This document shows positions 32,721 through 34,279 of a stretch of DNA of 64,000 bases, piece by piece. The notes under the pieces are model-generated. The model did no database searches. It was not told the origin of the DNA and saw only the letters and a list, made by a program, of their open reading frames with translations. This stretch comes from a virus, in IMG/VR virus record IMGVR_UViG_3300025459_000003, positions 32,001 through 96,000 of that record; one strand, written 5' to 3'. Position numbers and translations under genes: made by a program. How positions within the stretch are numbered: position 1 is the stretch's first letter; each line of letters starts with the position of its first letter.

Positions 32721-34279
32721 ATTTCATCTACCCAATGAACTAGCGTGGTCTTTTGCCACTCCCATGCTGACAAGGGTCTGCTTTCGATTTCATCTACCCG
32801 ATGAACTAGATGGTCTTACCCATCCGGGAAGCTAAGGTTTCATCTGCCCGATGAACTGGAATGGTCTCCACATGGGCTGTCGGGCGCAGCCTTGCGGCTT
32901 CCGTTTCATCTATCCGATGAACTGGGATGGTCTCCGTCACTTTGGGGGCGACGCAGCCACTCAAACACGTTTCATCTACTCGATGAACTGAAGTGATTTC
33001 CACCAGCGTGTCACAGGCTGTTGCACGCCACGAAATTTCATCTACCCGATGAACTGGAATGACCTTTACCTTACCGCTAGCAGCATTCGTTTCATCTACC
33101 CGATGAACTAGGGTGATCTTCACCGATTGGGGAACTCTGAACTATCCACCTGGAGTTTCATCTACCCGATGAACTGAGACGGTCCCCACCGAGTGAATCC
33201 TTCGCCAACAGCCCTCAACTGTTTCATCTATTCAATGAACTGAGGTGGTTTCCATTGGAGCAGGCGCAAGCATTCGTCAAATTTCATCTATCCGATGAAC
33301 TGGAGTGGTCCGTACTGAACAGCAAGGTCATGGTTTCATCTACCCGATGAACTGAGGTGATTTTTGCTGCAGCGTGAATTCTCTGGACTTTCATCTATTC
33401 AATGAACTGGGGTGGTTTTCGCCACAGCGTGAATCCCATGGACATGGACATGGTTTCATCTACTCGATGAACTGGGGTGGTCTTATTAAATGGAGAAACG
33501 GTGCCACGAGCTTGAAGAGTTTCATCTGCCCGATGAACTGGGGTGGTCTCCACCACGATGGCGTGCTCGCATCGCCGGTACGTGGTTTCATCTACTCGAT
33601 GAACTAGGGTGGTCTTCACCGATTGAGGAACTCTGGACTATCCACCTGGAGTTTCATCTACCCGATGAACTAGGGGAGTCTTCACCGAGTCCGCTGTTCT
33701 AACCAACCGAGCTATGGTTTCACCTATCCGATGAACTAGGGTGGTCTTCACCTGCTCTTCGAGTTCTTCCCCCGGATGAGCTGTTTCACCTATTCGATGA
33801 ACTAGGGTGGTCTTCACCAATCGGCAGGCAGTTGACATTTCCCAAGGAGTTTCATCTATCCGATGAACTAGGGTGGTCTTTACCTTTACACCATTGACCA
33901 CTGGTCGATCTGCGTTTCACCTATCCGATGAACTAAGGTGGTCTTCACCTTGGCCCCGTGTATCCCGTGGGCCCTATCGGTTTCACCTATCCGATGAACT
34001 AAGGTGGTCTTCACCTGCAGGCCATCCGGCTGGAACTCGGGCGGCGTTTCACCTATCCGATGAACTAAGGTGGTCTTCACCAGGGACGTTGTCGAGGTTC
34101 TTGTTCGAGTGGTTTCACCTATCCGATGAACTAAGGTGGTCTTCACCATCCCGTGGTGTCGACGGCAATCGAGTTGTGTTTCACCTATCCGATGAACTAA
34201 GGTGGTCTTCACCGACGGTCGCCGCCGCCGTGGGCGTCGCCGTGTTTCATCTACCCGATGAACTAGGGTGGTCTTCACC
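32721..34279 (-). CRISPR. CRISPR array: 25 repeats of 36 nt (GGTGAAGACCACCYTAGTTCATCGGRTAGRTGAAAC), 24 spacers, mostly 30 nt
   Basis: 66-nt period; repeats degenerate toward 32721; 3' GAAAC end; the hairpin UUCAUC/GGUGAA needs a G-U pair, which is possible only on the minus strand. Confidence 0.95.

Follow-up and report, generated by a model that had tools for sequence, protein, structure and literature searches.

A tRNA(CAU)-like CRISPR spacer in a large peat phage matches a half-tRNA repeat of a co-occurring bacterium and may guide a nuclease-dead Cas12m-related effector

The ninth spacer from the leader end of a phage-borne CRISPR array closely resembles the 5′ half of tRNA(CAU), and the closest sequence to it that we found lies beside a small gene island in a bacterium from the same peat habitat. 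The reading we prefer, to which we assign a probability of roughly one half, is that this spacer is directed against the host and guides binding, without cutting, at the tRNA(CAU)/attachment (att) locus of the co-occurring peat bacterium. The array and its associated genes (Table 1) lie in a 64,000-nt stretch of DNA (hereafter, the window), which is part of a 157,656-bp IMG/VR virus record with a GC content of 62% and an estimated completeness of 49%.

Table 1. Features of the CRISPR locus; positions refer to the window.
Feature	Position	Strand	Description
CRISPR array	32721..34279	-	36-nt repeats, mostly 30-nt spacers; 34279 is the leader end, the trailer is decayed
Repeat 3′ of the tRNA-like spacer (crRNA sense)	33651..33686	-	5 mismatches to consensus; degenerate part begins
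tRNA-like spacer	33687..33716	-	crRNA sense corresponds to tRNA(CAU) positions 6-35; 28/30 to canonical tRNA, 29/30 to the L292 fragment
Repeat 5′ of the tRNA-like spacer (crRNA sense)	33717..33752	-	would supply the handle; 1 mismatch to consensus
Terminator-like hairpin	34343..34376	-	15-bp stem and T run, between small ORF/cas genes and array
Small ORF	34485..34793	-	102 aa, no family match
Helicase-like protein	34790..37927	-	1045 aa, C-terminal class I methyltransferase domain
Cas12m-related effector	37954..40533	-	859 aa (850 aa from the public-call start)

Read on the minus strand, the 30-nt spacer is CATAGCTCGGTTGGTTAGAACAGCGGACTC, exactly as given in the original prediction, which had also noted its resemblance to the 5′ half of a tRNA. 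Derivation from such a half is upheld, with the anticodon CAU: in a blastn-short search against 473 tRNAs the spacer aligned over its full length with 28 of 30 identities (E = 3.6e-8), and no other spacer of the array reached an E-value below 0.03. Relative to the widespread bacterial tRNA(CAU), with the preceding CA counted, the two differences fall at A14 and at G24 in the D stem, where the spacer has G14 and A24. When up to three mismatches were allowed, the spacer pattern matched 9 of 401 Acidobacteriota genomes and a reversed control pattern matched none of the 401; the resemblance to a tRNA is not due to chance. We also used a degenerate pattern, TAGCTCRGTTGGTTAGARCAGCGGACTC, which admits both states at the two odd positions, and it matched more than 120 genomes from many phyla as well as 108 IMG/VR contigs. 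All 230 of these matches carry A14 and G24 (neither change is present in any of the 230 database tRNA copies), and 219 of them have the anticodon CAT, the other 11 CTT; the earlier assignment to either tRNA-Ile2/Met(CAU) or Lys(CUU) is thus retained for CAU and dropped for Lys(CUU). The tRNA(CAU), which may be tRNA-Ile2 or elongator tRNA-Met, has the acceptor-stem pairs C4-G69 and C5-G68, determinants of tRNA-Ile2. As A14 is universally conserved and G24 belongs to the D stem, an exact match to any working tRNA is not to be expected. IMG/VR and the JGI metagenome contigs yielded no 30/30 protospacer, which counts against the reading we prefer, and there were no G14 variants of the tRNA pattern either in IMG/VR or among 241 million JGI metagenome records. 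The spacer itself is not a tRNA gene, with neither a tRNA gene called by ARAGORN nor an Rfam match in the window.

The array consists of 24–25 repeats of 36 nt, and at the tRNA-like spacer the 66-nt period leaves a unique segment of 30 nt, as is typical of CRISPR spacers. That the crRNA is read from the minus strand follows from three lines of evidence. In the minus sense the repeat forms two hairpins (-9.8 kcal/mol), a fold that it lacks in the plus sense (-5.0 kcal/mol); T/C variation among the repeat copies preserves pairing, as A-U or G.U, in the minus sense only; and in related loci the array lies downstream of the effector gene on the same strand, and the ends of its repeats have the same hairpin with AAC after it. 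A minus-strand crRNA has the sense of the tRNA, and would therefore pair with the template DNA strand only and never with the tRNA. Transcription of the array from the minus strand and expression of the guide are putative: since a strong terminator-like hairpin precedes the array, the latter may need a promoter of its own, and a consensus scan of the leader detected no sigma-70-like promoter. Just past the trailer end, public gene calls for the same phage place a C5 DNA methylase gene (PF00145, 30957-31763, plus strand). The tRNA-like spacer is the only one of its kind among the 22 spacers of the array, and the two related arrays contain none among their 19, which speaks against the reading we prefer. 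Another spacer is similar to phage-type genes for collagen-like fibres. A BLAST search of the array against the 401 Acidobacteriota genomes returned one 28/30 match (see below) and otherwise weak GC-rich matches, which we treated as chance.

None of the spacers targets the phage itself: the best self-match on the phage contig is no better than 24/30. The contig encodes 26 tRNAs, all outside the window and two of them tRNA(CAU), and none of the 26, including both tRNA(CAU), is similar to the guide. The phage tRNA genes lie in clusters at contig positions 111539-139104; several have unusual D arms, and one of the tRNA(CAU) shows an initiator-type mismatch (A1/A72).

The effector is judged to be nuclease-dead on the basis of its active site. 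While the 859-aa protein has only a weak TNB match in Pfam, HMMER identified 53 relatives with 23–30% identity, mostly 700–830 aa in length, the alignment of which displays RuvC motifs with the catalytic residues D/E/D (AGxDIGWR, LxIExxFL and DQDxNAAxNL). In the phage effector (P0001) motifs two and three read VVIKNM and KKTENAA, that is, the RuvC-I Asp is kept, the RuvC-II Glu is replaced by Lys and the RuvC-III Asp by Thr (D/K/T); the protein also has an insertion of approximately 70 residues relative to the aligned family. The absence of two RuvC catalytic residues in the alignment with relatives supports the earlier claim of a dead effector. The profile of the family gives strong matches to Cas12m structures over the RuvC/TNB half (Cas12m, 1.4e-33; UnCas12m4a, 9e-27; Cas12m2, 3e-17; search against the PDB), and PADLOC, given P0001 alone, reports Cas12u1 (1.8e-11). 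By these profile matches the family is nearest to Cas12m and homologous to subtype V-M, although the differences in size and active-site pattern leave its membership of V-M proper unsupported. Cas12m blocks transcription or replication by binding DNA rather than cutting it (PMC11013384).

Two related loci offer a view of how this effector family is organised. A related phage locus (L284:8001-13700) encodes a Cas12m-related effector with an intact D/E/D site, a homologous helicase without the methyltransferase domain and a 10-repeat array; as the order effector–helicase–array is the same, the pairing of effector and helicase is conserved. The contig of a 753-aa relative (L287:1119-4025) is temperate-phage-like, encoding an ERF recombinase and a tyrosine integrase; an 8-repeat array follows the effector gene there, and the helicase is absent. 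In a variant contig of the same phage as in the window (L290:5340-8456), the helicase-methyltransferase is called as two proteins of 214 and 737 aa, which could reflect either a frameshift or an assembly error.

With A24 fixed in the pattern, just one of 241 million metagenome records was recovered: a contig of 5 kb that belongs to the numbered series of peat metagenomes from which the phage contigs also come. At 29/30 it is the only sequence we found that is closer to the spacer than the canonical tRNA, and the single difference sets a guide G against a T in the target strand, that is, an rG:dT wobble. ARAGORN calls no tRNA at this fragment. It is a displaced copy of a 5′ half, with identity to a real tRNA breaking off within the anticodon loop. 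The intact tRNA(CAT) is found 2.5 kb further downstream, and the DNA in between encodes a trypsin-like peptidase, an MNT nucleotidyltransferase and a HEPN protein. The same layout of fragment, island and tRNA recurs in seven bacterial contigs of the peat metagenome series that also yielded the phage (the first and six more from ENA and JGI peat assemblies) with two upstream and two downstream contexts, and in three of them the fragment retains the native upstream region of the tRNA. The result is a 95-nt direct repeat with sharp ends, one about 52 nt ahead of the tRNA and the other in the anticodon loop, and the two copies bound an island of 2.4 kb (L295:6152-8728, L292:137-2713). Such a repeat carries the signature of an insertion into the tRNA anticodon loop with duplication of the promoter and the 5′ half, and the inserted DNA is flanked by a partial tRNA copy and the intact tRNA, as at attachment sites of integrative elements. 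Mobility of the island is putative; there is no integrase among its three genes and no empty-site allele among the seven contigs. The outer flanks of the island differ between strains, as at a recombination hot spot. Guarding of an attachment site, one of the roles suggested by the original prediction, gains most from these data, as the 29/30 match bounds an inserted island, with the proviso that the mobility of the latter is putative.

The chromosomal context of this closest match includes genes for a fucosidase, pyruvate formate-lyase and RNase R, and the genes of the bacterium are 64–71% identical to those of Acidobacteriota, the sole phylum compared. Judged by its sequence, the spacer has a secure origin in the 5′ half of tRNA(CAU), of the kind found with the rare A24 in this co-occurring bacterium. 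The earlier suggestion that the best hit might also identify the host is borne out insofar as this hit is to a bacterium from the habitat of the phage; the bacterium is probably the host, the link being the shared habitat and the sequence match. A virus record lacking Cas1, with a spacer that matches same-habitat bacterial contigs at 29/30, is what one would look for in a host-directed phage guide, and, with the closest match being a half-tRNA by an island in a bacterium of the same bog, the effector is probably steered to that chromosomal spot. Guide positions 1-19 are the same in the fragment and in the intact tRNA(CAU) gene; given a heteroduplex of about 17 bp, as formed by Cas12m2 on its 36-nt repeat scaffold (PMC10442227), the two sites would be equivalent targets.

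A second spacer also finds a near match in a bacterium. The trailer spacer 32873-32902 is 28/30 identical to a 2.3-kb contig of an Acidobacteriota MAG (G003:C294:825-854), just upstream of a serine recombinase gene (Resolvase, 8e-40), and the same MAG provides the best genomic tRNA match among the 401 genomes of the phylum. The 5′ flank of this match is GTGCC, while that of the tRNA(CAU) target, formed by tRNA positions 1-5, is GGGCC. The consistent 5′ PAM for which the original prediction had suggested a check is present as a hint and no more: GCC stands directly 5′ of two independent near-protospacers and may be considered a candidate PAM, though it is seen in two matches only and is unlike the PAMs reported for Cas12m.

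Taken as a host-directed guide, the spacer would work as follows. Acquired from the 5′ half of the peat bacterium’s tRNA(CAU) locus and still matching it, the guide would pair with the template DNA strand beside the GGGCC flank and bring the RuvC-dead effector to bind, without cutting, at two bacterial sites: the displaced 5′-half repeat, with 29 Watson-Crick pairs and one rG:dT wobble, and the intact tRNA(CAU) gene. The bound complex would obstruct the tRNA transcription unit at its start and would likewise be a roadblock on the repeat that bounds the peptidase/MNT/HEPN island. The phage might gain in either of two ways: the host tRNA(CAU) could be silenced, with the phage’s own two tRNA(CAU) genes acting as substitutes, or elements that use this attachment site could be interfered with. 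Blocking tRNA transcription in the course of one infection may achieve little, as tRNAs are long-lived. The fully specified scenario, in which the dead complex sits on the host tRNA(CAU) gene and the half-tRNA repeat and thereby shuts off the tRNA or locks or disables the HEPN-MNT island, strikes us as rather unlikely. We also considered whether the guide could silence the island by stopping read-through from a promoter in the fragment, and set this variant aside as unsupported: the search for a consensus promoter gave none, and the fragment is separated from the first island gene by a terminator-like hairpin. None of the other spacers matches the interior of the island.

The main, and serious, rival is that the spacer is a relic or passenger. 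It may have originated in ordinary immunity against an integrative element or temperate phage that carried the tRNA(CAU) 5′ half in its att site, having been acquired by an ancestral bacterial or phage system, and since have drifted and lost any present function; we consider this possible. The state of the array speaks for it. The repeats are perfect near 34279 and progressively degenerate towards 32721, where shortened spacers (16–24 nt) and duplicated repeat-spacer blocks accumulate; the array is old and decaying, which counts against current function, and the degenerate part begins right beside the tRNA-like spacer. Two pairs of spacers are duplicated within the array (33125-33154 and 33621-33650; 33369-33387 and 33424-33452). 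The first pair shows an internal block duplication and supplies a yardstick for spacer drift: its members are two transitions apart in 30 nt, the same distance as that of the tRNA-like spacer from the canonical tRNA. About a dozen of the 108 IMG/VR matches and several of the genome matches are 5′ halves broken in the anticodon loop, so mobile elements commonly carry this very sequence; spacers of the Cas12r system of Lalka phages target elements that integrate at tRNA genes (bioRxiv 10.64898/2026.04.20.719267); and the absence of Cas1 also fits a relic. Against this rival, the repeat that would supply the handle is nearly consensus, a single wobble pair is all that sets the spacer apart from the co-occurring fragment, and the matched locus exists in the same habitat today.

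It is distinctly unlikely that the target is the tRNA(CAU) gene of competing large phages rather than the host chromosome, such that the guide would be an inter-phage weapon. This possibility is not without merit: the canonical 5′ half occurs on 108 contigs in IMG/VR, of which 89 carry an intact tRNA(CAU) and some are longer than 150 kb, the collagen-like fibre spacer mentioned above has a phage-type counterpart, and phage arrays are often aimed at other phages (PMC7162821). However, G14 or A24 variants are found in none of the IMG/VR contigs, IMG/VR scans with three other spacers gave no matches, the whole array has no blastn match among GenBank phages, and the closest match is chromosomal.

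The same phage is present in many peat metagenome assemblies, with the effector protein encoded on 70 contigs, the longest of 250 kb. The array, including the tRNA-like spacer, is identical in all nine other contigs compared. We do not regard this as a sign of selection, as the nine contigs differ from the window by 0–6 SNPs per 20 kb, and it is the near-clonality of the phage population that accounts for the identity.

The original prediction drew an analogy to the homing guides of Cas12k (type V-K), which direct CRISPR-associated transposons to insert beside tRNA genes. What the two have in common is a nuclease-dead type V effector combined with a guide that matches a tRNA gene (bioRxiv 10.1101/2021.02.06.429022). 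The analogy does not extend further: the 157-kb contig, which covers about 49% of the genome, has no rve transposase, TniQ, tyrosine integrase or Cas1, which argues against a Cas12k-type homing guide, and no Tn7-like genes accompany the locus, which lies in a phage genome among phage genes. Moreover, the effector is of another lineage, nearest Cas12m and not Cas12k, and the spacer is an ordinary member inside the main array rather than a delocalised guide. We therefore consider a homing function highly improbable.

Were the guide active, a virus would be directing a CRISPR effector that binds without cutting to a tRNA gene or attachment site of its host, a class of target that has so far been tied to Cas12k transposons and not to phage–host conflict. 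The view that host translation is intercepted by huge phages would thereby be broadened. If the tRNA/att-locus reading is true, it would amount to viral RNA-guided control of a host locus that involves neither cutting nor a transposon. The spacer match would also link an uncultured peat phage of the 300-kb class to a specific bacterial population, and offers a natural target and a candidate PAM for an uncharacterised Cas12m-related effector paired with a helicase-methyltransferase.

Among characterised systems, type V-M (Cas12m, formerly V-U1) is the nearest. The likeness lies in the RuvC/TNB profile match, the 36-nt repeat with a guide-adjacent hairpin and the expected absence of DNA cutting, a roadblock mechanism having been reported for Cas12m (PMC11013384, PMC10442227). 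The effector described here is larger, 859 aa (relatives, 700–830 aa) as compared to about 600 aa; while V-M has a non-canonical RuvC site, the relatives in this family have the canonical D-E-D and P0001 has lost the E and the D outright; the effector is phage-borne and linked to a helicase fused to a methyltransferase; and the candidate PAM is GCC, whereas Cas12m PAMs are T/C-rich.

The Cas12r-CRISPR of Thermus Lalka phages, read as a case of conflict between mobile elements (bioRxiv 10.64898/2026.04.20.719267), is likewise a type V system of phages that deals with elements integrating at tRNA genes, and the reading we prefer fits with what is reported for it. In that system, however, the nuclease is active and the spacers match internal parts of the elements, whereas here the effector is predicted to be dead and the tRNA/att repeat alone is matched, the island interior having no spacer match.

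The arrays of huge phages described by Al-Shayeb et al. (2020, PMC7162821), which are aimed at genes for transcription and translation of the host and include effectors with impaired catalysis, are a precedent for the reading we prefer and are similar in several respects. In both cases a large phage carries no acquisition genes and a catalytically impaired effector, and in both a spacer matches a bacterial chromosome from the same study. The present target differs in being a tRNA half/att repeat and not a protein-coding gene, and in being matched at 29/30 and not exactly. Finally, in both cases the phage carries its own version of the targeted function: sigma-70 in the huge phages and tRNA(CAU) here.
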